DNA of 64,000 nt from a virus (Duplodnaviria; Caudoviricetes): positions 13,111 through 77,110 of IMG/VR virus record IMGVR_UViG_3300029969_000013, one strand, 5' to 3'. The notes beneath the pieces were generated by a model. It was not told the origin of the DNA and ran no database searches. It worked only from the letters and a program-made list of their open reading frames with translations. This document shows positions 12,735 to 57,840 of this stretch, piece by piece. The first letter of the stretch is position 1; every line of letters starts with the position of its first letter. Made by a program: the position numbers and the translations under genes.

Positions 12735-14449
12735 TGTCAAATTCTAACCTTGTAAGTTATATAGATTCTGGTTCTAAAAATTATAATGCACGTACTGGGT
12801 CTATCACAAAGATAACTGTACATCATGCAGCTGGAAAATGTACATTATCCCAATTTACAAACATAATGCATTCTGGGCGTGAAGTTAGTTGGAATTATGC
12901 AATTGCATATGATGGCTCTATTGGATTATATATACCTGAAAAGTATAGAGCATGGACTACAGCTAATAGAGAAAATGACAATGTTGCAATTACAATTGAA
13001 GTATCTAATTCATCAAATGGAGAGCCATGGCCTATATCAGATGCAGCTTATAAATCATTGTTGAATTTATGTGAAGATATATGTAGAAGAAATAATATAC
13101 AAGCTATACAATATACAGGTAATAAGTCAGGAAACTTAACAATGCATAAATGGTTTGCATCTACAGGATGTCCAGGACCTACATTATCAACTAAATTCTC
13201 AGACATAATGCAGAAAGTCAATACACGATTAGGTCAACCAAGTACATTACCATATATAACAGATCCTACTACTGGTGAAGTTACAGCTGCTGGTTTAGTA
13301 TATAATGCAGTTACTATAGATATTGCATCTTTAGTTGATTATTCACAATTTACTCCATATGTAGCAACTATTGATAGAACTGTTAAGTCTATAGATTTCA
13401 AAAAACTAAAAGAACATAGTGTATCAGCTGTTATGATTGAAGCTGGTGGTCTATATAATCGTTCACATTCTGTAGTAGAAAACTATGCTAATCCATTACT
13501 AGATGAGCAAGTAAGAGGTGCAGGTGAAGCTTCTATTGATTATGGATTGATTGCAGATGTACGTTCTAGAAATGTAGAAGAAGCTAATGCTGAATTGAAA
13601 GAGCTTACAAGAATAATACAGAAGTATACACCACCATACGGCGTTTGGTTGAATTTGAATTTATCCGCTGATAAATCTACCAACAATAAGATAATAGATA
13701 GATATGAATTTGTATTACAAGCTTTAGGTTTGAAAGATAAAATAGGATTCTATGCTACTAGAGAACAGATGTCAAAAATTGATTGGAATGAAGATCGTCA
13801 AAACATTTGGTATCTATGGCTCAATAACCATGTAAAAGAAGAAGAGCATTTAGCACAGCTGCTGTCTCCTGAATTTTTCATGTTTGATAAAGATAAAGCA
13901 AGCGATGTACCTGTTATCAATACTACAATTTATACTGGATATAGTGATACTGGAATAGAATCTGGAATACTTACAGAATACAGCGATTGGGTGTTTGTAG
14001 GTGATTCTAGGACTGTAGGCATGGGCAATAGTGTTTCAGGTATAACAACTATGGCGAAGGTTGGCGGAAATTATAAGTACTTCTCGTCTTTGATATCTAA
14101 TATCAAGAAGCTTCATAATAAGAATATTGTACTTTGGTTTGGTGTCAATGATTTGAATAATGTAAGTAAATATGTGATGGCCTATAACGATTTATGTTTC
14201 ACCATGACAGATTGTAAAATAATTGTAGCAACTGTAGGTCCTACAAGAGGTTCATATGCTAAATTGATGCCAGACATACAAGATTTCAACGCTGCATTGA
14301 AAGATAGATTGAATCATAATATTACAATTGTCGATGTATGTTCTAAAATGATAAGTGGTACGTATACATCACCTGATGGGTTGCATTATAATTCAAAAAC
14401 TTATAAATGTGTATATAACTACATTACAAATGGAGTATATACAGAATAG
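12734..14449 (+). CDS. Tail-associated lysin: Amidase_2 + GH25-like + SGNH/GDSL esterase
   Basis: ITVHHAAG...AWT...ITIEV...HKWFASTGCPG amidase motifs; central TIM-barrel-like region; FVGDSR, GVND, DGLHY SGNH blocks. Confidence 0.75.
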   Translation: MSNSNLVSYIDSGSKNYNARTGSITKITVHHAAGKCTLSQFTNIMHSGREVSWNYAIAYDGSIGLYIPEKYRAWTTANRENDNVAITIEVSNSSNGEPWPISDAAYKSLLNLCEDICRRNNIQAIQYTGNKSGNLTMHKWFASTGCPGPTLSTKFSDIMQKVNTRLGQPSTLPYITDPTTGEVTAAGLVYNAVTIDIASLVDYSQFTPYVATIDRTVKSIDFKKLKEHSVSAVMIEAGGLYNRSHSVVENYANPLLDEQVRGAGEASIDYGLIADVRSRNVEEANAELKELTRIIQKYTPPYGVWLNLNLSADKSTNNKIIDRYEFVLQALGLKDKIGFYATREQMSKIDWNEDRQNIWYLWLNNHVKEEEHLAQLLSPEFFMFDKDKASDVPVINTTIYTGYSDTGIESGILTEYSDWVFVGDSRTVGMGNSVSGITTMAKVGGNYKYFSSLISNIKKLHNKNIVLWFGVNDLNNVSKYVMAYNDLCFTMTDCKIIVATVGPTRGSYAKLMPDIQDFNAALKDRLNHNITIVDVCSKMISGTYTSPDGLHYNSKTYKCVYNYITNGVYTE

Positions 14450-30166: not shown

Positions 30167-30646
30167 ATGAGTGAAAATAAAAATACTGTAGAGGATATCT
30201 TAACTCCACCAACAGATTCGGATGTAGATGTTAAAAAGGAATCGGCTGATAAGAAAACAACTGATACAAAATCTACTGCAAAGAAAACAGAATCTGCGAA
30301 AAAGACAGAAACTGCAAAGAAATCTGATTCTGAGAAAACTGCATCTAAAGAAGATACAAAAGTTACAGAGAAACAAGTTGAAACTTCAACAGGTACAGAG
30401 TTAGTAACAGACAAATCAAATAAGTTGACAGCTGGTACAGAATTTACAGCGAATCGCTTAGTACGAATCTACCCTACATCTAATATGTATATGTATACAA
30501 ATACACGTTCAGGCAAGATGTATATATATGCAGATGGTGTAGTAAACGGCCGTATTCGTCTAACTGATGATATAGAAAAAGTTGGTCAGCCCTTCGGTTG
30601 TATCGGCTGGGCATCTGTAGATGCTGTAATGCTATGTATTGAATAA
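30167..30646 (+). CDS. Hypothetical protein, Lys/Thr/Ser-rich N-terminus and SH3-like C-terminus
   Basis: GGAGG RBS; C-terminal NGRIRLT...GWAS resembles cell-wall-binding SH3-like modules. Confidence 0.55.
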   Translation: MSENKNTVEDILTPPTDSDVDVKKESADKKTTDTKSTAKKTESAKKTETAKKSDSEKTASKEDTKVTEKQVETSTGTELVTDKSNKLTAGTEFTANRLVRIYPTSNMYMYTNTRSGKMYIYADGVVNGRIRLTDDIEKVGQPFGCIGWASVDAVMLCIE

Positions 30647-32475: not shown

Positions 32476-33156
32476 ATGACAATGGACAAATTTACAAGAA
32501 GACGTGCAATTGCAACTTGTGCGTTATTAGCAGTTGTAGGTGTAAGCGGTTTTGGTATTGTTAAAAACAAATGCGAATCTCAGTGTAGTGCAATTCCTAC
32601 TACATATGAATATACAGATGAAGTAACAACAATGCCTTATATGGTTACAAATACATCTACAAAAATTGAAACAACAACTGAAGCTGCTACAACATCTGTT
32701 ACTACTACAACTACAACGACAGAAGCAGCACATCTATATACAACAGTATGCGAAACTTGTGGAAGTAATATTACTGGTGTATATCTTACAGATACAGAAG
32801 TACAGATCTTAGGTACACTTGTATATCTTGAAGGTGGGGTAGAATCTTATGACTGCCAGAAAGCGATTGCAAGTACTGTTATAAATAGAATGATTACCTC
32901 TGGAGATACACTTATTGAAACTATCTATGCAGATAATCAATATTCAGTAGCATGTATGCTCGATGATTCATCACCTTCAGATGAATCGTTAAATGCGGTG
33001 ATGGAAGTATTAAACAACGGAACTACAGTACCGGAATACGTTACATTCTTCAGATCTGGTTACTATCATGATTGGGGAGATCAAGTACCATATTGCAGGA
33101 TTGACGATACATATTTTACATATAGTCAATCGTTGTTAGACGCTTATGAAAATTAA
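32476..33156 (+). CDS. Cell wall hydrolase, SleB/Hydrolase_2 family
   Basis: N-terminal TM/signal, Thr-rich linker, LVYLEG..ES...AIASTVINR...QYS, C-terminal IDDTYF. Confidence 0.8.
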   Translation: MTMDKFTRRRAIATCALLAVVGVSGFGIVKNKCESQCSAIPTTYEYTDEVTTMPYMVTNTSTKIETTTEAATTSVTTTTTTTEAAHLYTTVCETCGSNITGVYLTDTEVQILGTLVYLEGGVESYDCQKAIASTVINRMITSGDTLIETIYADNQYSVACMLDDSSPSDESLNAVMEVLNNGTTVPEYVTFFRSGYYHDWGDQVPYCRIDDTYFTYSQSLLDAYEN

Positions 33157-48226: not shown

Positions 48227-48754
48227 ATGAAAGATGTTTACAGCAAAATTGTATATGACACATTTGATATCGCAGATGCGATATCTGAACTTAATGACAC
48301 AATTAACAATACTGTCAACTTCAATGAAAAACACCCGCCTGTTTATATTTGCATAATGGATGGCGCAGTGCAATTCTTTGCAGATATAACACGTAAATTA
48401 CCTTCTGGACAATGCGTATATGTGAAGGCAAGTAGCTATGGACATACTCAACAATCTGGAGAACTTACAGTTTCTGAGATACCTAGTGATTTGAATTCTA
48501 ATCAAATCTTCATATTTGACGATATATGCGATACAGGTTCTACACTAAAAGCTGTTAGTGACATTGTACAGCTCAAATATCCAAATGCTGATGTATATAC
48601 TGTAGCTCTTGTTGACCGTGCAAGCGATGGAAAAGGAGTACCTTACTGGTCTGCTATCACTACATCTAAATCTACATTCTTTGCAGGATATGGTATGGAT
48701 GATAAGGGGCAAGGCAGAAATTTACCATTTATCTACGATTGTACGGAGGAATAA
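48227..48754 (+). CDS. Hypoxanthine phosphoribosyltransferase-like protein
   Basis: FIFDDICDTGSTL PRPP-binding loop; FAGYGMD...RNLP. Confidence 0.85.
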   Translation: MKDVYSKIVYDTFDIADAISELNDTINNTVNFNEKHPPVYICIMDGAVQFFADITRKLPSGQCVYVKASSYGHTQQSGELTVSEIPSDLNSNQIFIFDDICDTGSTLKAVSDIVQLKYPNADVYTVALVDRASDGKGVPYWSAITTSKSTFFAGYGMDDKGQGRNLPFIYDCTEE

Positions 48755-48756
48755 GT

Positions 48757-49152
48757 ATGAAAATTCAAGAGGGTCAAATGTATGAAATCACTGTAGTTAA
48801 GATTCTGCCTAAGGGAATAATTGTGCAGATTAAAGGAACATCTGACACAGAGTTTATACATATATCCAAACTGTCTACAAAATTTGTATCAGACATATCT
48901 AAATTGGTACAAGTAGGTGACTGTTTTGAAGCTATATGTGTGAAAGGTTCTACTAGATTAGAATTATCTTTGAAGCACCTAAATTTAGAATCGTTATATA
49001 AAAATGTAGATCGCAAGTGTCTTGAGAAACACAATCAGCCAAAATCTTCATTAGACGAGATGATTGCATCGGCTGAGGCTATTTTCAAAGACAAAAGGCG
49101 AGATGCAGATGCTAGATTGAAACGTAGACGTAAGTCAGGTTTCAAAAGATGA
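48757..49152 (+). CDS. S1 RNA-binding domain protein (YugI-like)
   Basis: EGQ..E..V..I...G..V......FIHISKL..FV.DI...VQVGD...LSLK. Confidence 0.85.
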   Translation: MKIQEGQMYEITVVKILPKGIIVQIKGTSDTEFIHISKLSTKFVSDISKLVQVGDCFEAICVKGSTRLELSLKHLNLESLYKNVDRKCLEKHNQPKSSLDEMIASAEAIFKDKRRDADARLKRRRKSGFKR

Positions 49153-49171: not shown

Positions 49172-49645
49172 ATGATTAAAGAAGTTAAAAAATGTATGTA
49201 TCATTCTACATTACTCAATGAGGATTTCGATACACTATTCCATGCAAAGGATGCAGAGCTCAATATACGTATACATATTCGTAAGAATATTGAATCGTTG
49301 ATAAACATAATCGACTACTACAATGAATTATGTGATGAATATAAGTCTGCAGTACATCAGGGTGATTCTGAAAGTGTCGAAAAATATGAACAACTGCTCG
49401 ACGAGACATTCAATAAGTTCTATGAATTAGGTGTCCATAAATTGCTGTTCCCTGAGAATGAAGATTCAGCAGAGGTAGAATTTGAAAAGGCAATGCGTGC
49501 ATATTGTGGTGAATCAGATACCGATGATACAGCTGAATGTATGGAAGATGTTGATGTAGAACGTGCACCGTCCAGTGGCATTTTAGTTAAAGTGCATAAG
49601 GTAAGAAGGTCACATTGCGGCAATTGTAACAGATGCAAACAGTAA
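49172..49645 (+). CDS. Hypothetical protein
   Basis: GGAGG RBS; Cys-rich C-terminus. Confidence 0.65.
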   Translation: MIKEVKKCMYHSTLLNEDFDTLFHAKDAELNIRIHIRKNIESLINIIDYYNELCDEYKSAVHQGDSESVEKYEQLLDETFNKFYELGVHKLLFPENEDSAEVEFEKAMRAYCGESDTDDTAECMEDVDVERAPSSGILVKVHKVRRSHCGNCNRCKQ

Positions 49646-49742
49646 ATGATTCAACATTATACATTTAACCTTGTATAATTAGCGATCGTTATTATAAGTG
49701 GCCAAGATGATGCTTGGCAGGGAATCTGCAATGAGCAGAGTA

Positions 49743-49770
49743 CTACCGTCTGTGGGTTGACGGTAGACCA
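49743..49770 (+). ncRNA. CCA-terminated microhelix
   Basis: CTACCGTC / GACGGTAG 8-bp stem, 8-nt loop, ACCA; 1 nt before next element. Confidence 0.55.
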
Positions 49771-49771
49771 A

Positions 49772-49861
49772 GCCGGAGTAGCCCAAAATCAGTCAGAGGT
49801 ACTTGTCAGTCCTAGGCAACGTCAAGAAACAGTGTTGGTTCAAATCCAGCCTCCGGTACCA
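49772..49861 (+). ncRNA. tRNA-like RNA with abnormal anticodon region
   Basis: GCCGGAG/CTCCGGT acceptor, GTTGG-TTCAAAT-CCAGC T arm, ACCA; no canonical 7-nt YU-NNN-R loop. Confidence 0.75.
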
Positions 49862-49986
49862 GACTCGCTTTCTTAAGATAGCTTCTTGTTCCGAGTCTGA
49901 AATAGAAAGAAGCTATAGTGTAGTAATATGCAACTATATAGCATATACGTCTTTGACAGTTGAACGGATATAATCAACTGTAATGA

Positions 49987-50063
49987 GGGCCTTTAGCTTA
50001 GTCGGTTAGAGCAGCTGACTCATAATCAGCAGGTCGCCAGTTCGAGACTGGCAAGGCTCACCA
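49987..50063 (+). tRNA. tRNA with CAT anticodon (Ile2-type likely, Met possible)
   Basis: Canonical cloverleaf, GCTGA-CTCATAA-TCAGC, G1-C72, encoded ACCA. Confidence 0.9.
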
Positions 50064-50157
50064 GCCCGAAAGGGCAAAATTTCAATTGTTGTCATAAAGT
50101 TACTTGTTTTTAGTTCATTTTGTCTTAGAAACTTATCATGTATCTAAGACATTTTCT

Positions 50158-50224
50158 CCTTCAATAGCTTAATTAGTAAAGCAAATGTTTATTGATGCTG
50201 GTGCAAATCCAACTTGAAGGTCCA
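50158..50224 (+). ncRNA. tRNA-like RNA lacking a normal anticodon arm
   Basis: CCTTCAA/TTGAAGG, D arm GCTT/AAGC, 3-bp stub AAT-GTTT-ATT, T arm loop TGCAAAT, TCCA end. Confidence 0.75.
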
Positions 50225-50273
50225 GTCCTAAATAGGACAATCGTTATTAATAACAGAAAGCAACATAAAATGT

Positions 50274-50349
50274 TGGGGTATAGCCAAGTGGTAAGGCAAC
50301 AGACTTTGACTCTGTCATCTCGCTGGTTCGAATCCAGCTACTCCAACCA
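50274..50349 (+). tRNA. tRNA-Gln(TTG)
   Basis: Canonical cloverleaf, ACAGA-CTTTGAC-TCTGT, encoded CCA. Confidence 0.93.
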
Positions 50350-50412
50350 GCAGTACGAGTTGCTGCCAATGTAGGTTTTAGAGCAAATGTTGTTCCTACA
50401 TAAAAATAAAAC

Positions 50413-50448
50413 AGGTATGTGCGGCGAGACGGACCTAAACGCCGACCA
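50413..50448 (+). ncRNA. Small CCA-terminated hairpin/pseudoknot
   Basis: CGGCG/CGCCG then ACCA; AGGT/ACCT could cross-pair; 1 nt before next element. Confidence 0.45.
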
Positions 50449-50449
50449 T

Positions 50450-50551
50450 GTAGTGTCAGCGTAGCGAGATGATATGCATTCAACCATATGGGAATAGGTG
50501 GTTTACTCATATGGTAACCACCAGCAGGGGCAGGACCTGCACACTGCACCA
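50450..50551 (+). ncRNA. tRNA-like RNA with two alternative helices replacing the anticodon arm
   Basis: GTAGTGT/ACACTGC acceptor, GCGT/ATGC D stem, GCAGG-GGCAGGA-CCTGC T-like arm, ACCA. Confidence 0.7.
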
Positions 50552-50587
50552 GCGTCAAAAGACGCACTTTCATAATTCTTTTCTTTT
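50552..50587 (+). terminator. Possible terminator/processing hairpin
   Basis: GCGTC-AAAA-GACGC followed by T-rich tract. Confidence 0.45.
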
Positions 50588-50662
50588 AGGCGAGCAGATG
50601 ACCTCCAAATCAAATATCTGCAAAGTAGCTCCTTAACTGATGGCCTGAAATTCAGGCCTTAA

Positions 50663-50697
50663 CAAGAACAAGAGGTAACGACTTATGTTCTTGACCA
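50663..50697 (+). ncRNA. CCA-terminated minihelix
   Basis: CAAGAACA / TGTTCTTG 8-bp stem then ACCA. Confidence 0.5.
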
Positions 50698-50859
50698 GTC
50701 GGTTTGTCTTTTCTATTTCTTCGTTCCGACAACAAAAACCAGTAAATAGAACGTTTAGTACATACGGTAGGATATCTCATGTATTTGATAGTATTTAAAG
50801 AGGTGCACATTTTTAAATACGTCGGTACAATTAGATAGAATGAAAATGTACTTACATAT

Positions 50860-50936
50860 CTAGATGTAGCTCAGTTTGGTAGAGTGCTTGGTTTGGGACC
50901 AAGATGCCGCAGGTTCGAATCCTGTCATCTAGACCA
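50860..50936 (+). tRNA. tRNA-Pro(TGG)
   Basis: Canonical cloverleaf, CTTGG-TTTGGGA-CCAAG, encoded ACCA. Confidence 0.95.
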
Positions 50937-51012
50937 GCTGTTATGATAATGTATAAAGTTGAAAACTTTTTCAAACATCACATTTCAAACGAATTCAAAA
51001 TGAATAAAGGAT

Positions 51013-51822
51013 GTGGTAAGTATTAAAGTATATATAAAAGCAAGCACCGGATCGACAGCAACTATGCTTGCAAAGGATGTAGCTAATACATTAAGTAAAG
51101 GTTGCGATGTACCAGTAAGTTATAAAGTTTCAACAATCAGTAGAGATGTTTATAAGATTACATGGTTCTATTATGATCTTCCAGGTGTATCTCAATTTGT
51201 AAATACAGTACGTAGAGAGTTAGCAATTGCAGAAGATGACTTTGAGTATGATGTTAATGGACTCCCTATATTACCTACTAATAATGCTGATACAATTAAT
51301 CCGGAAGTTGTTATCAAAAATTGGGTTGATTCTGGTAAATTCGACCTTATGGCTAAAATGTATTATGGATTGACCACAGAAAGCAAACTGTATATAAAAT
51401 CTATGAAGAAAGAATCTACTGGGCGCAATGCACGAGATTATGAAAGGATATTTGGTAAACCTGTTGAGAACAACGATAAGGTTATCACCATGACTATTCG
51501 TGTTAAACAGCTAGCTGACATCAATAAAACATCTGATACTGATTGGAATGTCAAATGTATTGATGAGTTATTTAGATACTATAAGGTATATGATGGAAGC
51601 AAAAAGGTTAAATTACCTGAAGACGAACTCCATCAGTTATACGACATATTGACATACAATTCTGTAACTAAGCGAAGAAATACTATCAATATCATTCCAA
51701 AGGCCAACAGAAATGTTGATGATGTTGTATCAACAATTGATGCATTTATAGATAAATATTATCCAGATATACAATATGATTTATCAATTTCAGGTGATAA
51801 AATAGTTATTACAGTTGAATAG
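51013..51822 (+). CDS. Hypothetical protein inside the RNA island
   Basis: 269-aa ORF, GTG start after AAAGGA. Confidence 0.65.
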   Translation: MVSIKVYIKASTGSTATMLAKDVANTLSKGCDVPVSYKVSTISRDVYKITWFYYDLPGVSQFVNTVRRELAIAEDDFEYDVNGLPILPTNNADTINPEVVIKNWVDSGKFDLMAKMYYGLTTESKLYIKSMKKESTGRNARDYERIFGKPVENNDKVITMTIRVKQLADINKTSDTDWNVKCIDELFRYYKVYDGSKKVKLPEDELHQLYDILTYNSVTKRRNTINIIPKANRNVDDVVSTIDAFIDKYYPDIQYDLSISGDKIVITVE

Positions 51823-51914
51823 CTATTTAACTTATATTATCATAGGTATAGTTGAAAGTACCTTGTTTACACGTTATTAGGGATAGTAACTAAACGGCAG
51901 AAAGCTTTCCGTTG

Positions 51915-51946
51915 TGACTATGGGTGTGCGAAACGGTAGTCAACCA
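51915..51946 (+). ncRNA. CCA-terminated minihelix
   Basis: TGACTAT/GTAGTCA 7-bp stem, ACCA, 1 nt before tRNA-Gly. Confidence 0.5.
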
Positions 51947-51947
51947 T

Positions 51948-52022
51948 GCAGATATAGTATAATGGTTATTACATCAGATTTCCAATCTGGTTATGTGGGT
52001 TCAATTCCCACTATCTGCTCCA
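51948..52022 (+). tRNA. tRNA-Gly(TCC)
   Basis: Canonical cloverleaf, TCAGA-TTTCCAA-TCTGG, U73, CCA. Confidence 0.93.
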
Positions 52023-52120
52023 GGGGCGCAGGTTTGAGATCATGCCACACTAACTAAAATCCTTGTATCTATGGGTATTCCTGCACAACCATAGAATAGG
52101 TAGGGAATTCTATTCAATAT

Positions 52121-52146
52121 GCAGATGTAGTTCAATATCTGCTCCA
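52121..52146 (+). ncRNA. tRNA-Gly microhelix
   Basis: GCAGATG-TAGTTCAA-TATCTGC-TCCA; last 11 nt identical to tRNA-Gly at 51948. Confidence 0.65.
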
Positions 52147-52360
52147 ATAATCCCACTGCCCCAGCTATTCTATTAGCAAGTAGGGTTCGTTGCATGCAAG
52201 GGCAGCATCTGTAACGGTCAAGCGTACACGATTTATAGTGCTCGATATAAACTGTATGATGAGCAAGCAGTACGTTAAGTAGTACAGTGACATTCGGAGA
52301 GACGAAGGTACTCATTTTACAATCTGAGGTTTCCAACTGTTCTTAAGGTGGAAACCCGAT

Positions 52361-52508
52361 GTCAGAATCATCTAATGTAAGATAATTAGAATTGAAGACT
52401 AATGTTATTTATCATACGTTCAAGATCAGGTCTTTCCGATGTAGTTCCTGAGATGCCATCGTCAATTCATTCTAATCAATGGTGGTGCAATTCCACCTTC
52501 TGACACCA
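52361..52508 (+). ncRNA. tRNA-like RNA with anticodon stem extended to about 14 bp and a 60-nt apical insert
   Basis: GTCAGAA/TTCTGAC, ATCT/AGAT D stem, ATTAGAA/TTCTAAT, GGTGG-TGCAATT-CCACC, ACCA. Confidence 0.75.
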
Positions 52509-52769
52509 GACCCGCTATTTCATACATCTTAATTGGTCACTGAATAGAATGAAACCTTGCCAATTTGGTCGGCAGTCAGTACGGTAGAAAAGCGTACAGT
52601 ATGATGATAATGCCTTTCTAGAAAGACTTACCGGATACCTATTCCGCAACAGGTGCAAAATCGTAACCCGAACCTATATGCGATAACAACAAAGTGTCAG
52701 GGTGACAACTTGGAACAGGACAAGTACCTTCAGTTTAAAGGGCTGTTGGGTTTACTCAGCAGCTCGTAT

Positions 52770-52831
52770 GCAGTCGGTGGCCACTATCAACGTACACGAT
52801 AGCGTAGGTTTGATTCCTACGGACTGCACCA
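52770..52831 (+). ncRNA. D-armless tRNA-like RNA
   Basis: GCAGTC/GACTGC, CTATC-AACGTACAC-GATAG, CGTAGG-TTTGATT-CCTACG, ACCA. Confidence 0.7.
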
Positions 52832-53089
52832 GCCGACTTGTCAATGTCGTAAAACTTGATGGGTGATACTTGCCCGAACGTTAAGCTATAAGGTCAGTAC
52901 TTAAGAGTTATAGTCTTGAAGAAATGGATCTTCTTCTGATACGCTTGATGTAAAGGATTCTCCAGCGGTCTGAGGTGCAACAGATGGCTGAGCTGAAATG
53001 TATCAAAAAGTTTTACTGCACTAACGGATGATACAAGTACCGTGGAGATTGCCGGTACGCTTGCCCTATATGCAAAATAGGGCATAAAT

Positions 53090-53174
53090 GCGGATATGGT
53101 GAAATAGGCATACACGATAGATTTAGGTTCTATTGCCGTAAGGCGTGCAGGTTCGACTCCTGTTATCCGCACCA
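53090..53174 (+). tRNA. tRNA-Leu(TAG)
   Basis: Class II cloverleaf, ATAGA-TTTAGGT-TCTAT, long variable arm, ACCA. Confidence 0.95.
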
Positions 53175-53204
53175 ATAACTTCTTATAAAAACTTCCACAA
53201 TGGT

Positions 53205-53233
53205 AAAAGATGTCGAGTAATTCGGCATCTTTT
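53205..53233 (+). terminator. Intrinsic terminator closing the RNA island
   Basis: AAAAGATGTCGA / TCGGCATCTTTT. Confidence 0.7.
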
Positions 53234-53286
53234 GCTTTATAAATCGTTATATAATATACAAGTATTAAAATATGGAGGACTTACAT

Positions 53287-53808
53287 ATGAAACATCAACA
53301 GATAATTATCATCAACGGAAATGGAGGTGTAGGTAAAGATACATTCATTAGGGTATTATCAAGTGTATTCAGAGATGTAGACATATGGAGTTATTCTACT
53401 ATCGACAAGGTTAAAGAGATTGCTAAGATGATAGGATGGGATGGCGTCAAGGATGAAAAAGGTCGAAAACTTCTAGCTGATCTGAAATCTCTCTGCGACA
53501 GCTACAATGATATGACTTTCAAAGATATGAAGCAAGCTGTGTCAGAATTTAAGAACAGCTATGGTACGCTGCTATTCATTCACATTAGAGAACCTCATAA
53601 CATTGATAGAGCAAAAAATGAGTTTGATGCTATTACAATGTTAGTAACTAGAGATTCTGTTGAAAATATAACATCTAATGACGCTGATAAACATGTTGCA
53701 GAATATGACTATGATTATGTTGTAAACAACAATGGTAATCTTGTACAGCTTGAATTAGAGGCAAAGAAATTTTTACAATACATAAATAACATCATGCGAA
53801 ACAGCTAA
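53287..53808 (+). CDS. P-loop nucleotide kinase-like protein
   Basis: IIIINGNGGVGKDTF; FIHIREP; NNG.L..L lid pattern. Confidence 0.7.
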   Translation: MKHQQIIIINGNGGVGKDTFIRVLSSVFRDVDIWSYSTIDKVKEIAKMIGWDGVKDEKGRKLLADLKSLCDSYNDMTFKDMKQAVSEFKNSYGTLLFIHIREPHNIDRAKNEFDAITMLVTRDSVENITSNDADKHVAEYDYDYVVNNNGNLVQLELEAKKFLQYINNIMRNS

Positions 53809-53844
53809 TCGTTATATAATACATAACTTGAAAGGAGTATTCTA

Positions 53845-54735
53845 ATGAATAAGGTATACAGTGAGTTTCGCAGAGGTGATGTATGATATGTTCGGCTTAA
53901 TGATGAAATAGGAGATGGTAATGACAAATCGTCTGTTCAAAAGAAAAGTCGACCTTATCTCATTGTTTCATGTGAGGAAAACAACAATTGTGCACCTACT
54001 ATTAATGCTATACCTATTACTACACGCCCAGCTGATCATTTACCAATGCATGTTTACTTCAATTACAACAATAGAGACCAGCTTGTATTATGCGAACAAA
54101 TTGCTACGTTATCTGTATTAGATTTTAAGCGTTCAGGTTCTCATTTCATGTATTGTTTCAATCTTGAATTCATGACAAAGATTGACGACGCACTTGCTGC
54201 ACAGTTAGGACTCAGACCAAGAGTTGCTGATATGAAAGTATTAGAAAATTTAATTGATAAGATTTCATCTGAAAGAGAAGCAGAGCTGAAACGCAAATAT
54301 GAAGACAGCTTACAGATGAGAGTTGAATCAATTGCTGCAAAGTTAGCAAAACAATTCAATATCGACTTAAATGCACAAGATATGCTTACAGGTGCAACGT
54401 ATAGACCGGAAGAATTGACATATGCATCTAAAGAAACTAAAGCAAATATTGCTGAAACTGCTAAATCTAGAATGACACCGCCAGTTGAACCGCAGCCATC
54501 ACCTGAAAATTCAAAACCTGCACCTGAAACATCCGACAAATCAACAAATAAATCAAGAAAAAAATCCTCCAAAACACAATGGACAGAAGCAGCAATGAAG
54601 GCATACTTATCAGACTACGAACATCTATCTGTATCAGCAATGTCTTCTAAATATAGTATAGCTAAAAAGTCTGTTGCACAATATCGGTACTTATTCAGAA
54701 AGAAGCTAGATGAACAAGGAGACGATAATGAGTGA
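53845..54735 (+). pseudogene. MazF/PemK-family endoribonuclease with C-terminal extension, interrupted by in-frame TGA at codon 14
   Basis: AAAGGAG RBS; RRGDV*YV...Q..SRPYLIVS...PITT...HV...CEQI...IDDALAAQLGL continues in frame into ORF 54046..54735. Confidence 0.8.
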
Positions 54736-55331
54736 CACCGAAGGAACTATTTGACAAAAATCAAAAGTTAGTAGGATATTGCTTCAAGAAATATGTAGGT
54801 AACTATTCTTTACCAGACCATGAAGATATCATTCAAGAAGGTATGTTAGGTCTTTGGCAAGCTGCTGTAAAATTCGATGAAACTAAAGGTGTCAAATTCA
54901 ATACATTTGCAGTGAAATACATATATGGAACTATGCTGAGATATATTAGAGATAGACGAAATACGACCCGTGTTCCTAGAGCAGTAAGAGATGCAAGCGA
55001 TTCAGATACTATAAACAAAATATTAAATGTATATTCATTAGATGCTGAAAAACAAGTAGATGACAATAAATCAACATCGTTAATAGATACTATAGCAGAC
55101 TCGCCTGATGAATACGAATATCTAACAGAAGATATCATAGATAAATTTTTAGATACCATTAAAAATCCAATTCACAGAGACATAATGGAGGAATATTATT
55201 ATACAATTGTATGGTATGGTAAAATTACACAGCGTGATTTGTATGAAAAGTATGGTATATCTCAACCTAATTTATCTAGAATATTAAAAAGATACAATGA
55301 TGAATTTGCAGCATACATAAACAACAATTAA
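54732..55331 (+). CDS. Sigma-70 family sigma factor (SigF/SigG/SigB-like)
   Basis: EDIIQEGMLGLWQAAVKFD..KG.KFNTFA..YI.G...RYIRD...RVPR region 2; TQRDL..KYGISQPNLSR region 4 HTH. Confidence 0.88.
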   Translation: MTPKELFDKNQKLVGYCFKKYVGNYSLPDHEDIIQEGMLGLWQAAVKFDETKGVKFNTFAVKYIYGTMLRYIRDRRNTTRVPRAVRDASDSDTINKILNVYSLDAEKQVDDNKSTSLIDTIADSPDEYEYLTEDIIDKFLDTIKNPIHRDIMEEYYYTIVWYGKITQRDLYEKYGISQPNLSRILKRYNDEFAAYINNN

Positions 55332-55337
55332 ATATCT

Positions 55338-55380
55338 ATACATCAATTACCTTATATAAATATACAGGTAATTGATGTAT
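55338..55380 (+). repeat. Perfect 15-bp inverted repeat overlapping an ACCTT motif
   Basis: ATACATCAATTACCT / AGGTAATTGATGTAT with 13-nt loop. Confidence 0.85.
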
Positions 55381-55388
55381 AGTTTTAT

Positions 55389-55475
55389 GCCGATATGTCG
55401 GAATTGGCAGACGAGGCAGACTCAAAATCTGTTGTCAGTAATGACGTAAGGGTTCAAGTCCCTTTATCGGCACCA
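55389..55475 (+). tRNA. tRNA-Leu(CAA)
   Basis: Class II cloverleaf, GCAGA-CTCAAAA-TCTGT, ACCA. Confidence 0.95.
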
Positions 55476-55527
55476 TTATTGTGATGATATATCACAATAT
55501 AATCATACTATATGGAGGTATTAGGAT

Positions 55528-57840
55528 ATGATAACACACATCATAAAAAGAGATGGTCGTAAAGTACCATTTGACATCGAGAAAATAGTAAATGCTGTAT
55601 TCAGAGCTGCTAACTCAGTAGGTGGTACAGATGCGGAGACGGCTAAAGACATCGCCATAAAAACATGTGACTACTATGAAAAAACATATATAGATCAGAC
55701 TCCTACGGTTGAGCTTATTCAAGACATTGTTGAGAAGATGCTTATAGAAGGTGGACATGCAAGAACTGCTAAAGCTTATATATTGTATCGGCAAGAGCGT
55801 ACACGTGACAGAGAAATGAAATCTGGTCTGATGCAAACAATGAAAGAGCTTACGTTTGAATCGGCTAAAAACAGTGATAATAAGCGTGAAAATGCAAACA
55901 TAAATGGTGACACGGCAATGGGTACAATGCTCAAGTATGGATCATCAGCTGCTAAAGCCTTTTATGAATTGAGTATATTGAATCCAGAACATGCAAAAGC
56001 TCACCGTGAAGGTGATATCCATATTCATGATCTTGATTTCTATACGCTTACAACAACATGCACTCAGATTGATTTGGTCAGATTGCTTAAAGATGGATTT
56101 TCTACAGGACATGGTCATTTGAGAGAACCAAATGATATTGCAAGCTATTCTGCACTTGCTTGTATTGCTATACAATCTAATCAAAACGACCAGCATGGTG
56201 GTCAAAGTGTACCAAATTTTGAATATGCAATGGCTGTAGGTGTACGGAAAACGTTTGCACATAAATATGTTCAGAATCTTGCTAAAGCAATTCTGTTAAT
56301 TGGTCAGCTTGATGATGCTGAAAGATTTGCAGATCGTATATCTAATGACATCAAGAACAAATTCAACTTAATTCCTACACTTGCAAACGAAGATGATTAT
56401 CAGAAAATTGAGAATTCATACCTGTGTGAATATCTAGGTGCAGAGCATGCCAAAGCTATTCAGTCATTTGCACGAAAGTATGCCATCAAAGAAACAGAAC
56501 GTGCTACTTACCAAGCGATGGAAGCACTTATTCATAATTTGAATACAATGCATTCAAGAGCTGGTGCACAAGTACCATTCAGCTCTATAAACTATGGTAC
56601 AGATACGTCTCCTGAAGGTAGAATGGTTATCAAAAATATTCTACTTGCTGAGGAAGCCGGTCTGGGAAATGGAGAAACACCTATCTTCCCGATTCATATT
56701 TTCAAAGTCAAAGAGGGTGTGAACTATAACAAAGAAGATCCAAACTACGACTTGTTTGAGCTGGCGTGCAAGGTGTCTGCTAAGCGTTTGTTCCCTAACT
56801 TCTCATTTATCGACGCTCCATTTAACCTTCAGTATTACCGCCAAGGGCACCCTGAGACCGAGGTTGCGTATATGGGCTGTCGTACAAGAGTCATTGGTAA
56901 TGTACATGACCCGTCAAAAGAGATTGTAAATGGAAGGGGTAATTTAAGTTTTACGTCTATTAATTTACCTCGACTTGCAATTGAAGCTAATCATGATATA
57001 GACAAGTTCTACGAAATGTTGCACGAAAAAATGAATTTAGTAATAGATCAGCTTATGCATCGTTTCAGAATTCAATCTAAGAAACTTGTACGTAACTACC
57101 CATTCCTTATGGAACAAGGTGTATGGATTGATTCAGGTAAACTTAATTTAGATGACGAAGTCGGAGAAGTATTAAAACACGGTACTCTTTCCGTTGGATT
57201 CATCGGACTTGCTGAATGTCTTAAAGCTCTCATTGGAGTTCATCACGGCGAAAGTGAAGAAGCACGTAAGTTAGGTTATGAAATTATTAAAACAATGCGT
57301 CAACGTGTAGATGAGGAATCTAAAAGAACTGGACTTAATTTCTCTCTTCTTGCAACGCCTGCTGAGGGACTTTCAGGACGTTTTGTACGTATGGACGCTA
57401 AGAAATATGGAATCATTGAGGGTGTAACTGACAGAGATTACTATACAAACTCTTTCCATGTGCCTGTTTACTATCCGATAAGCGCATTTGAGAAAATAAA
57501 AATAGAAGCTCCTTACCATGAGCTTACAAATGCAGGTCATATCAGCTATATTGAGATGGATGGTGACCCTGTTCAGAATGTAGAAGCATTTGAAAAAGTT
57601 GTACGTTGTATGAAAGAATCAGGTATCGGTTATGGTTCAATCAACCATCCAGTAGATAGAGATCCAGTTTGTGGATTCACAGGAATCATTGGAGATACTT
57701 GTCCACAGTGTGGACGTACTGAAGGTGATATCCCATTTGAAAGAATTCGTCGCATTACAGGATACCTTGTAGGTACACTTGACAGATTCAACAATGCTAA
57801 ACGTGCAGAAGAAAGTCAAAGAGTAAAACATAATATTTGA
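55528..57840 (+). CDS. nrdD: Anaerobic ribonucleoside-triphosphate reductase with ATP-cone
   Basis: IIKRDGRKVPFD ATP-cone; IHIHDLD; YMGCRT; RGNLSFTSINL; ATPAEG; RITGYL glycyl-radical motif. Confidence 0.97.
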   Translation: MITHIIKRDGRKVPFDIEKIVNAVFRAANSVGGTDAETAKDIAIKTCDYYEKTYIDQTPTVELIQDIVEKMLIEGGHARTAKAYILYRQERTRDREMKSGLMQTMKELTFESAKNSDNKRENANINGDTAMGTMLKYGSSAAKAFYELSILNPEHAKAHREGDIHIHDLDFYTLTTTCTQIDLVRLLKDGFSTGHGHLREPNDIASYSALACIAIQSNQNDQHGGQSVPNFEYAMAVGVRKTFAHKYVQNLAKAILLIGQLDDAERFADRISNDIKNKFNLIPTLANEDDYQKIENSYLCEYLGAEHAKAIQSFARKYAIKETERATYQAMEALIHNLNTMHSRAGAQVPFSSINYGTDTSPEGRMVIKNILLAEEAGLGNGETPIFPIHIFKVKEGVNYNKEDPNYDLFELACKVSAKRLFPNFSFIDAPFNLQYYRQGHPETEVAYMGCRTRVIGNVHDPSKEIVNGRGNLSFTSINLPRLAIEANHDIDKFYEMLHEKMNLVIDQLMHRFRIQSKKLVRNYPFLMEQGVWIDSGKLNLDDEVGEVLKHGTLSVGFIGLAECLKALIGVHHGESEEARKLGYEIIKTMRQRVDEESKRTGLNFSLLATPAEGLSGRFVRMDAKKYGIIEGVTDRDYYTNSFHVPVYYPISAFEKIKIEAPYHELTNAGHISYIEMDGDPVQNVEAFEKVVRCMKESGIGYGSINHPVDRDPVCGFTGIIGDTCPQCGRTEGDIPFERIRRITGYLVGTLDRFNNAKRAEESQRVKHNI

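Follow-up and report, generated by a model that had tools for sequence, protein, structure and literature searches.

What kind of molecule has the paired ends, the D arm and the T arm of a tRNA, finishes in an encoded ACCA, and carries where the anticodon loop should close an irregular arm of about 92 nt? The question is raised by a 148-nt RNA gene in a stretch of 64,000 nucleotides of phage DNA (hereafter the window; positions 13,111 to 77,110 of the IMG/VR virus record IMGVR_UViG_3300029969_000013, a 77-kb record that is about 51% complete), where it lies on the + strand with G1 at 52361 and A148 at 52508. A first description made from the letters of the DNA (the sequence-only reading) had presented it as a tRNA-like RNA with a long helix and a domain of about 60 nt in place of the anticodon loop; the coordinates proved exact, and the interior comes to 61 nt in our fold. 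Our preferred answer, to which we give an about even chance, is that the 148-nt RNA is a non-decoding, tRNA-framed stable RNA that has a function and is cut from a tRNA operon in the style of RNA1 and RNA2 of phage T5 and species 1 RNA of phage T4. Its design and location are already known from those T5 and T4 RNAs; a class I frame with G55 and a terminal ACCA is the new variation.

The tRNA frame and the arm it carries

Every one of the 16 base pairs in the stems of the frame is Watson-Crick (7 in the acceptor stem, 4 in the D stem and 5 in the T stem), and U8 and C9 join the 5' strand of the acceptor stem to the D arm (Table 1). A script was used to search for CCA-ended frames in which a T stem of 5 bp closes a T[G/T]C[A/G]A loop and an acceptor stem pairs 7/7 within 260 nt. 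On the + strand the pattern matched in the tRNA cluster only, on the - strand it matched nowhere, and in 100 simulated sequences of 128 kb it did not occur once. Because the pattern is absent from all of these simulated sequences, the tRNA frame of the 148-nt RNA is real and far beyond chance.

The acceptor, D and T arms had all been called normal in the sequence-only reading. This holds for the 7-bp acceptor stem and for the T arm but not quite for the D arm, which has a 6-nt loop containing a single G rather than G18G19, and A10 rather than G10. In the covariance model alignment this loop is similar to that of a paralogue at 50158 (AAUUAGUA). When the positions that build the tRNA elbow are tested, U8, A14, A21, U54, A58, C56 and the pair G53-C61 are present, and G55 and the single D-loop G deviate. 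The T loop TGCAATT had been singled out as sharing its G55 with the unit at 50158, and both loops do carry it (UGCAAUU and UGCAAAU). Acceptor pair 3-70 is C3-G70, as the reported lack of a G3-U70 pair implied.

Where a 7-nt anticodon loop would close, the helix runs on into the long arm; therefore the 148-nt RNA, as transcribed, is unable to read codons. The helix comprises nt 25-32 with 109-116 (8 bp), a U33 bulge, nt 34-36 with 106-108, an AA bulge, and nt 37-39 with 101-103. These 8+3+3 pairs give 14 bp in total, which bears out the proposed extension of the anticodon stem to about 14 bp. Within the insert the segments TCAGG and CCTGA had been pointed out, and both are there (UCAGG at nt 66-70, CCUGA at nt 87-91), though their pairing would come at the expense of the minimum-energy hairpin. 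Both the helix and the interior are weak and rich in AU, and all that remains in the centroid structure is the acceptor stem, the T arm and portions of the long helix. Compared with shuffled sequences, the folding z score is -2.4 for the whole 148-nt RNA, -0.85 for the 92-nt arm and +0.64 for the inner 61 nt. The 3' strand of the long helix (52466-52477) also pairs at 11 of 12 positions with a downstream stretch, 52542-52553 (GAAUAGAAUGAA), which is similar to the helix's own 5' strand; the match could reflect an alternative pairing in the precursor or the trace of a duplication.

Table 1. Features of the 148-nt RNA, of other units in its cluster and of non-decoding units in two relatives. Positions are those of the window unless a relative (L011, L013) is named.
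Feature	Position	Strand	Details
Acceptor stem, 5' strand GUCAGAA	52361-52367	+	7/7 Watson-Crick with 52498-52504; U at -1 (52360)
D arm AUCU/AGAU	52370-52383	+	4 bp, 6-nt loop AAUGUA; A14 and A21 retained
Extended anticodon-arm helix, 5' strand AUUAGAAU-U-GAA-GAC	52385-52399	+	minimum-energy and two-sequence consensus folds
Insert interior, 61 nt (nt 40-100)	52400-52460	+	irregular weak hairpin UACGUU/GAUGUA, AAGAU/GUCUU
Extended helix, 3' strand GUC-AA-UUC-AUUCUAAU	52461-52476	+	minimum-energy fold
Variable region CAAU, 4 nt	52477-52480	+	read from sequence; U48 could pair with A15
T arm GGUGG-UGCAAUU-CCACC	52481-52497	+	5-bp stem; U54, C56, A57, A58 and G53-C61 retained; G55
Acceptor 3' strand UUCUGAC, discriminator A73, encoded CCA	52498-52508	+	read from sequence
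67-nt tRNA look-alike	50158-50224	+	perfect acceptor stem, D arm (AAUUAGUA loop), T loop UGCAAAU (G55)
90-nt NCCA-ended unit	49772-49861	+	T loop UUCAAAU; not called by ARAGORN
62-nt NCCA-ended unit	52770-52831	+	T loop UUUGAUU, single internal hairpin; not called by ARAGORN
Minihelices (short hairpin and NCCA)	49743-49770, 50663-50697, 51915-51946, 52121-52146	+	
Non-decoding units of relatives	L011 4569-4629, 5854-5940; L013 6394-6451, 6732-6835		
Promoter-like site TCAACA-17-TATAAT	49651-49679	+	upstream of the entire RNA cluster; consensus match only
Open reading frame (ORF)	51013-51822	+	269 aa, GTG start; sole long ORF within the RNA cluster, doubtful

Distribution and comparison with a sister phage

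Homologues were sought with blastn against 50,697 GenBank phage records, with four exact-pattern scans of IMG/VR, and with a covariance model, R1, which was applied to 160 loci surrounding NrdD relatives (80 viral, 80 metagenomic) and to four whole phage records of the clade. All searches taken together, the 148-nt RNA is present in one other record only, that of the sister phage IMGVR_UViG_3300045988_108123; beyond this copy, neither blastn nor the IMG/VR pattern scans nor the R1 scans gave a homologue. The sister copy is 98% identical, and its 3 differences in 148 nt (nt 46, 95 and 96) all fall within the insert. Read in the register 42-46/92-96, they convert A.C, U.G and U.G to A-U, U-A and C-G and are thus compatible with a helix in that register, although three changes are far too thin as proof.

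In the flanks of the 148-nt RNA, 32 of 1449 nt differ between the window and the sister phage. Sixteen of these 32 differences are crowded into 144 noncoding nt (52565-52708), a divergence hot spot separating the 148-nt RNA from the tRNA-like unit that follows it. In the sister phage an extra tRNA-Gly(UCC), not in the window, stands just before tRNA-Leu(UAG) (window 53086-53095). Two further relatives, with NrdD 87-88% identical, have only the true tRNAs and one minihelix in common with the window; the sequence between their tRNAs is wholly replaced, and the 148-nt RNA is absent.

Look-alikes in the cluster and the recurrent G55

Units that combine a 7-bp stem with NCCA reach a density of 14 per 3.5 kb in 49650-53200, compared with about 0.6 per kb elsewhere. 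By R1, the look-alike at 50158-50224 is the element closest to the 148-nt RNA (28.2 bits, E = 0.0018), and it has the same type of D loop and T loop. Its anticodon arm is truncated, with about 15 nt in place of the anticodon arm and variable loop, and it scores 37.4 bits against the Rfam tRNA model.

Of the 7 groups of non-decoding look-alikes in the four related records, 4 carry G55, as against none of about 11 groups of canonical tRNAs (p about 0.01, by our own count). All of the elements with G55 retain U54, C56, R57, A58 and G53-C61, and their acceptor sequences are wholly different yet paired. Because one T-loop position has changed repeatedly while the others were spared, the recurrence of G55 would fit a maintained T-loop fold better than random decay. 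The unit that occupies the position of 49772 in L011 and L013 is 61 nt long and has G55, so that position 55 switches between orthologous units.

An 87-nt look-alike with G55 in the sister clade (L011 5854-5940, L013 5796-5882) gives some measure of how such units change. Between L011 and L013 it has 11 differences, 9 of them within 36 nt of its interior, one U-A pair is replaced by C-G, and the 160 nt upstream contain 1 difference. Inserts in such frames therefore evolve fast, with at least one helix retained. The 3' acceptor strand of the L013 copy pairs perfectly only with a GGUGAAU about 150 nt farther upstream, and the unit may be 234 nt long, starting at about 5708 in L011 and at 5649 in L013.

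Tests against known RNA families

ARAGORN made no call on the 148-nt RNA by default, with introns allowed or in tmRNA mode. Searches of Rfam 15 gave no match to it at the gathering score over the window or at E up to 10 over 7 kb (49500-56500), and a 271-nt search with lax filters produced nothing relevant (tRNA, tmRNA, group I introns, YrlA, Y_RNA). Even at lax thresholds, ARAGORN -m called no tmRNA here, and Rfam matched no tmRNA, group I intron or tRNA.

Several identities were tried and rejected. A canonical decoding tRNA would need a 5-bp anticodon stem with a 7-nt loop (U33, anticodon, purine 37), which is not present, and the tRNA model RF00005 gave no match at E up to 10, the 271-nt search included. 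No group I core had been seen in the sequence-only reading, and the Rfam group I intron search returned no match either, also with 271 nt and lax filters; a tRNA with a group I intron is rejected on the lack of an Intron_gpI match at E up to 10 and on an insert of 73-76 nt, far below known cores. A bulge-helix-bulge intron requires 3-nt bulges around a 4-bp helix, and in the fold 3 bp separate a bulge of 1 nt from one of 2 nt. YrlA and Y RNA are set aside on three grounds: the ends form an acceptor stem with ACCA, Rfam gave no match, and the four phage records contain no TROVE domain. Ribozymes have no Rfam support, and ROOL (RF03087) and GOLLD (RF01998) were matched neither at the gathering score across the window nor in 49500-56500 with E up to 10.

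Two descriptions apply in part. The 148-nt RNA has the combination of a UGC/UGU T loop and an altered D loop that marks non-proteogenic tRNAs, but it lacks the glycine identity (U73, C35 and C36) of the non-proteogenic tRNAGly, having A73 and no anticodon loop, and FemAB was not found in the four phage records. It also shares with the phage 'tRNA-like stable RNAs' a location in a tRNA cluster, a tRNA-type T arm, paired ends and a non-tRNA interior. These RNAs (T5 RNA1 and RNA2, T4 species 1) are a loose kind rather than a homologous family.

Competing explanations

The architecture had been likened to the tRNA-like domain of tmRNA with its P2 helix, or to an intron-containing pre-tRNA. As topology the likeness stands; membership of tmRNA falls on the defining features, and the intron reading goes back to one lax ARAGORN call. 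We reject a reduced tmRNA-like ribosome-rescue RNA (a tRNA-like domain with a P2-like helix) and regard it as next to impossible, for topology alone speaks for it: a long helix connects an internal domain with the acceptor stem, the T arm and the ACCA end. The pair C3-G70 in place of G3-U70 leaves it no alanine identity, it has the full D stem that tmRNAs lack, and its interior of only 61 nt offers no resume codon with a short tag and no pseudoknots. The previously reported lack of a tag-like ORF is upheld in that the sole open frame, which begins with an AUG at nt 42, continues across the T arm, and each of the 3 sister-phage differences alters its amino acids; ARAGORN -m, moreover, remains empty even at -ps80, and Rfam tmRNA is not matched at E up to 10. 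An intron-containing tRNA, from which a protein pathway would remove 73 nt (52398-52470) to leave a 75-nt class I tRNA with the loop AUUGAAG (anticodon UGA), is a weak reading that we consider very unlikely. In its favour, relaxing the ARAGORN threshold yields a tRNA(UGA) call over exactly 52361-52508, with an intron of 73 nt at 37/38 and with U33 and A37 where they should be. The window contains no tRNA-Ser(UGA), of which the sister clade has one or two, and 'enigmatic' introns have been predicted in the tRNAs of Lak megaphages (PMC6784885). The same lax run, however, added two overlapping and mutually incompatible calls, presumably false, in the same 348 nt, and at the default threshold with introns allowed there is no call. 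The spliced product would require 2 nt between the D and anticodon stems and would combine a UGA anticodon with A73 and no long variable arm, unlike bacterial tRNA-Ser; the proposed splice sites lie inside a paired helix, not in a bulge-helix-bulge; group I and group II introns give no match, and 73 nt is too small for either. No splicing endonuclease (tRNA_int_endo), RtcB or RNA ligase was found in the four phage records, which are incomplete. Exact-match IMG/VR scans of either half returned only the insert-carrying sister copy and no identical copy free of the insert, and G55 occurs in no decoding tRNA of the clade.

A functional RNA also has to be weighed against decay and against a role in processing only, and several observations count against it. 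The 148-nt RNA is confined to two phages in which it is 98% identical, and it is missing from the relatives with NrdD 87-88% identical, where the true tRNAs and one minihelix are conserved. It has diverged to the same extent as the flanks (3/148 and 32/1449), and there appears to be no sign of extra constraint on the gene. The interior of the insert folds no better than shuffled sequence and is thermodynamically unremarkable. An antisense target of at least 13 nt for the insert is absent from the 77-kb record, where a lone 12-nt match is about what chance would give, and none of FemAB, a CCA-adding enzyme, TROVE, RtcB, a tRNA splicing endonuclease and an RNA ligase was found in the four incomplete records. 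The cluster holds evident tRNA debris, including the minihelix 52121-52146 (GCAGAU..GUUCAAU..AUCUGC-U-CCA), which resembles an internal-deletion stump of the tRNA-Gly at 51948, and tRNA genes have been gained and lost between the sister phages. Much of this is what one would expect of a decaying tRNA gene: the anticodon loop of a class I tRNA, closest to tRNA-Gly(UCC), would have received about 75 nt by insertion or rearrangement, and the gene, so young that its stems have stayed intact, would still be transcribed and trimmed to an idle product. The nearest tRNA body is indeed the neighbouring tRNA-Gly(UCC), with a T loop that differs only by the change of U55 to G, and the stump in the cluster and the extra tRNA-Gly copy in the sister phage only fit the same account; a young dead derivative of that neighbour would look much alike. 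We nevertheless think decay unlikely, if not lightly dismissed, since the change of U55 to G, with the rest of the T loop retained, is shared by four look-alikes that are otherwise unrelated and by no true tRNA, all 16 frame pairs remain Watson-Crick with NCCA retained, the helix is lengthened by 9 further pairs rather than disrupted, and comparable oversized frames are stable RNAs in T5 and T4. If, instead, the frame were a processing mark only, recruiting RNase P and 3' trimming to cut the operon transcript, the useful products would be flanking spacer RNAs or neighbouring tRNAs. The operon is dense with NCCA-ended units of 26 to 148 nt, the minihelix 49743-49770 stops 1 nt before the unit at 49772 and the minihelix 51915-51946 stops 1 nt before the tRNA-Gly at 51948, and some 2 kb of the cluster belong to no tRNA and to no credible ORF. 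For such a role, however, a 26-nt minihelix would suffice, with no need of a full D arm, a special elbow and a 92-nt arm, and the restriction of G55 to look-alike units would be left unexplained; we regard it as improbable. The insert was also considered as a repeated mobile element, of which the 77-kb record holds no second copy (direct matches up to 11 nt).

A possible mode of action

If the 148-nt RNA is a functional, non-decoding RNA, it would be transcribed within the phage tRNA operon (about 49.65-53.2 kb, all on the + strand). Following established tRNA biology, host RNase P would cut before G52361, with U at -1, and the 3' end would be trimmed back to the encoded ACCA at 52508. The arms, together with the contacts U8-A14-A21, A15-U48, U54-A58, G53-C61 and C56 with the single D-loop G, would give an L-shaped tRNA body, and the arm would probably be too long for the ribosomal decoding site by about 14 bp or more. 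Purely by analogy with the non-proteogenic tRNAGly of staphylococci, an elbow with G55 and without G18 might exclude the RNA from EF-Tu and the ribosome, and it would presumably leave it a substrate for tRNA end-processing and for proteins that bind the top half of tRNA.

The working part could then be the tRNA top half, as decoy or ligand of a tRNA-binding protein of host or phage, or else the fast-changing insert, as cargo that the frame carries and stabilises. The former is favoured because arm-deleted units also exist in the cluster, and the latter because inserts change fast and in a partly compensated manner. Taken further, phages of Clostridia might keep a class of look-alikes that an alternative elbow (G55 and no G18) shuts out from EF-Tu and the ribosome, and whose acceptor/T-arm half or insert binds and disarms a tRNA-recognising host protein, such as an acceptor-end toxin or a defence nuclease directed at tRNA. 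The 148-nt RNA would be a rapidly evolving member of such a class, with its long arm as bait or shield. This is a long shot, which we offer as speculation.

The phage and its RNA cluster

The window has a G+C content of 35% and every gene on the + strand, and its gene set (helicase, SbcC-like ATPase, dNMP kinase, sigma factor, NrdD, NAD ligase) is typical for a large virulent phage. Cultured phages are distant, the best helicase matches being below 30% identity (Listeria, Bacillus, Moorella and Clostridium phages), and the phage NrdD is nearest (76%) to genomes of Ruminococcus and other Oscillospiraceae. On this basis a clostridial, Ruminococcus-type host of gut or rumen is likely.

The RNA cluster (about 49.65-53.2 kb, + strand) is a tract of 3.5 kb nearly without ORFs. 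It holds 5 of the 6 tRNAs that ARAGORN calls in the window (Met, Gln, Pro, Gly and Leu-UAG), the sixth, Leu-CAA, lying beyond it at 55389-55475, and all 6 have an encoded CCA. The promoter-like site at the head of the cluster (Table 1) is likely to be the start of an operon transcript that contains the 148-nt RNA, as judged from its consensus match, and a terminator-like hairpin near 53207-53238 was seen by eye, though not called by the prediction tool. For the one long ORF in the cluster, Pfam and PHROG searches gave no match and Atlas gave no usable match; in the sister phage a tRNA-Arg(CCU) stands where the body of this ORF would lie. In eight tRNA-type units (49772, Met, 50158, Gln, Pro, Gly, the 148-nt RNA and 52770) the base that follows CCA is G, a possible 3'-processing signal. 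Directly upstream of the RNA operon a protein of 137 aa with an S1 RNA-binding domain is encoded (48739-49152), preceded by a phosphoribosyltransferase gene (48227-48754).

Significance and comparison with known systems

The small stable tRNA-like RNAs of the T4 and T5 tRNA clusters have gone unexplained for about fifty years. The 148-nt RNA would be a clean further example of a tRNA-like stable RNA, in an uncultured phage that is probably one of Clostridia. Should the G55 pattern hold more widely, it would provide a simple sequence mark that separates decoding from non-decoding phage 'tRNAs', and it is a clue that points to proteins binding the tRNA top half. There is also a warning here for annotation, in that tRNA finders miss such genes and lax settings mislabel them as intron-bearing tRNAs.

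With tmRNA the 148-nt RNA shares acceptor and T-arm ends that a long helix joins to an internal domain; tmRNA has G3-U70, a tag frame, pseudoknots and no D stem, none of which is matched here. Much the same design is seen in the engineered 'tRNA scaffold' that Ponchon and Dardel are said to have introduced in 2007, in which a foreign RNA inserted into a tRNA's anticodon arm is reportedly processed and stabilised like a tRNA. As a laboratory construct it bears on the working mode of the 148-nt RNA and not on family membership.

A comparison that the sequence-only reading overlooked concerns the G55 T loop, which is a known mark of non-proteogenic staphylococcal tRNAGly. In S. aureus the genes for these tRNAs carry TGC or TGT at the T-loop site where TTC is usual; the tRNAs bind EF-Tu and the ribosome weakly, have their determinants in the D and T arms, and supply cell-wall synthesis instead of translation (PMC7826273). 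The NP1-NP3 tRNAGly of Staphylococcus resemble the 148-nt RNA in their UGC T loop (G55, no pseudouridine 55) and in a D loop without the usual GG. They differ in being true 75-nt tRNAs with a UCC anticodon and U73, charged by GlyRS and used by FemXAB, whereas the 148-nt RNA has no anticodon loop and has A73, and no Fem-type transferase was found in the phage records.

Closer precedents than tmRNA, likewise overlooked at first, are T5 RNA1 (144 nt) and T4 species 1 RNA. The T4 species 1 RNA (rnaC, 139 nt) and species 2 RNA (rnaD; both in GenBank AF158101) are, as the 148-nt RNA may be, small stable RNAs of unexplained function, located at the end of a phage tRNA cluster. Both are processed by tRNA enzymes, as the older literature has it. 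Species 1 has a canonical T arm beside paired 5' and 3' ends and long internal hairpins, in which it is similar, but it shows no evident D arm or cloverleaf, its T loop is UUCGAAU, and there is no sequence similarity. R1 scores T4 rnaC at 7.6 bits and T5 RNA1 and RNA2 at about 11 bits, below true tRNAs, so that no homology is apparent by sequence or model.

The likeness in plan is nevertheless considerable for T5 RNA1 and RNA2, which are annotated 'tRNA-like stable RNA with unknown functions' (AY543070, misc_RNA 30501-30644 and 32959-33083). Like the 148-nt RNA they lie inside a phage tRNA cluster, are of similar size (144 and 125 nt), and consist of a tRNA frame with paired ends, D arm and T arm in which an enlarged domain replaces the anticodon loop. 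RNA1 folds as a leucine-type frame with an enlarged anticodon arm, and it differs in being class II: its D loop is of the leucine type, its variable arm is long, its T loop is the canonical UUC one, and CCA is not encoded; the host of T5 is Escherichia, and that of the present phage probably belongs to Clostridia. Set beside T5 RNA1, the 148-nt RNA has a frame of class I, G55 in its T loop, a D loop of 6 nt and an ACCA that is encoded in the gene.

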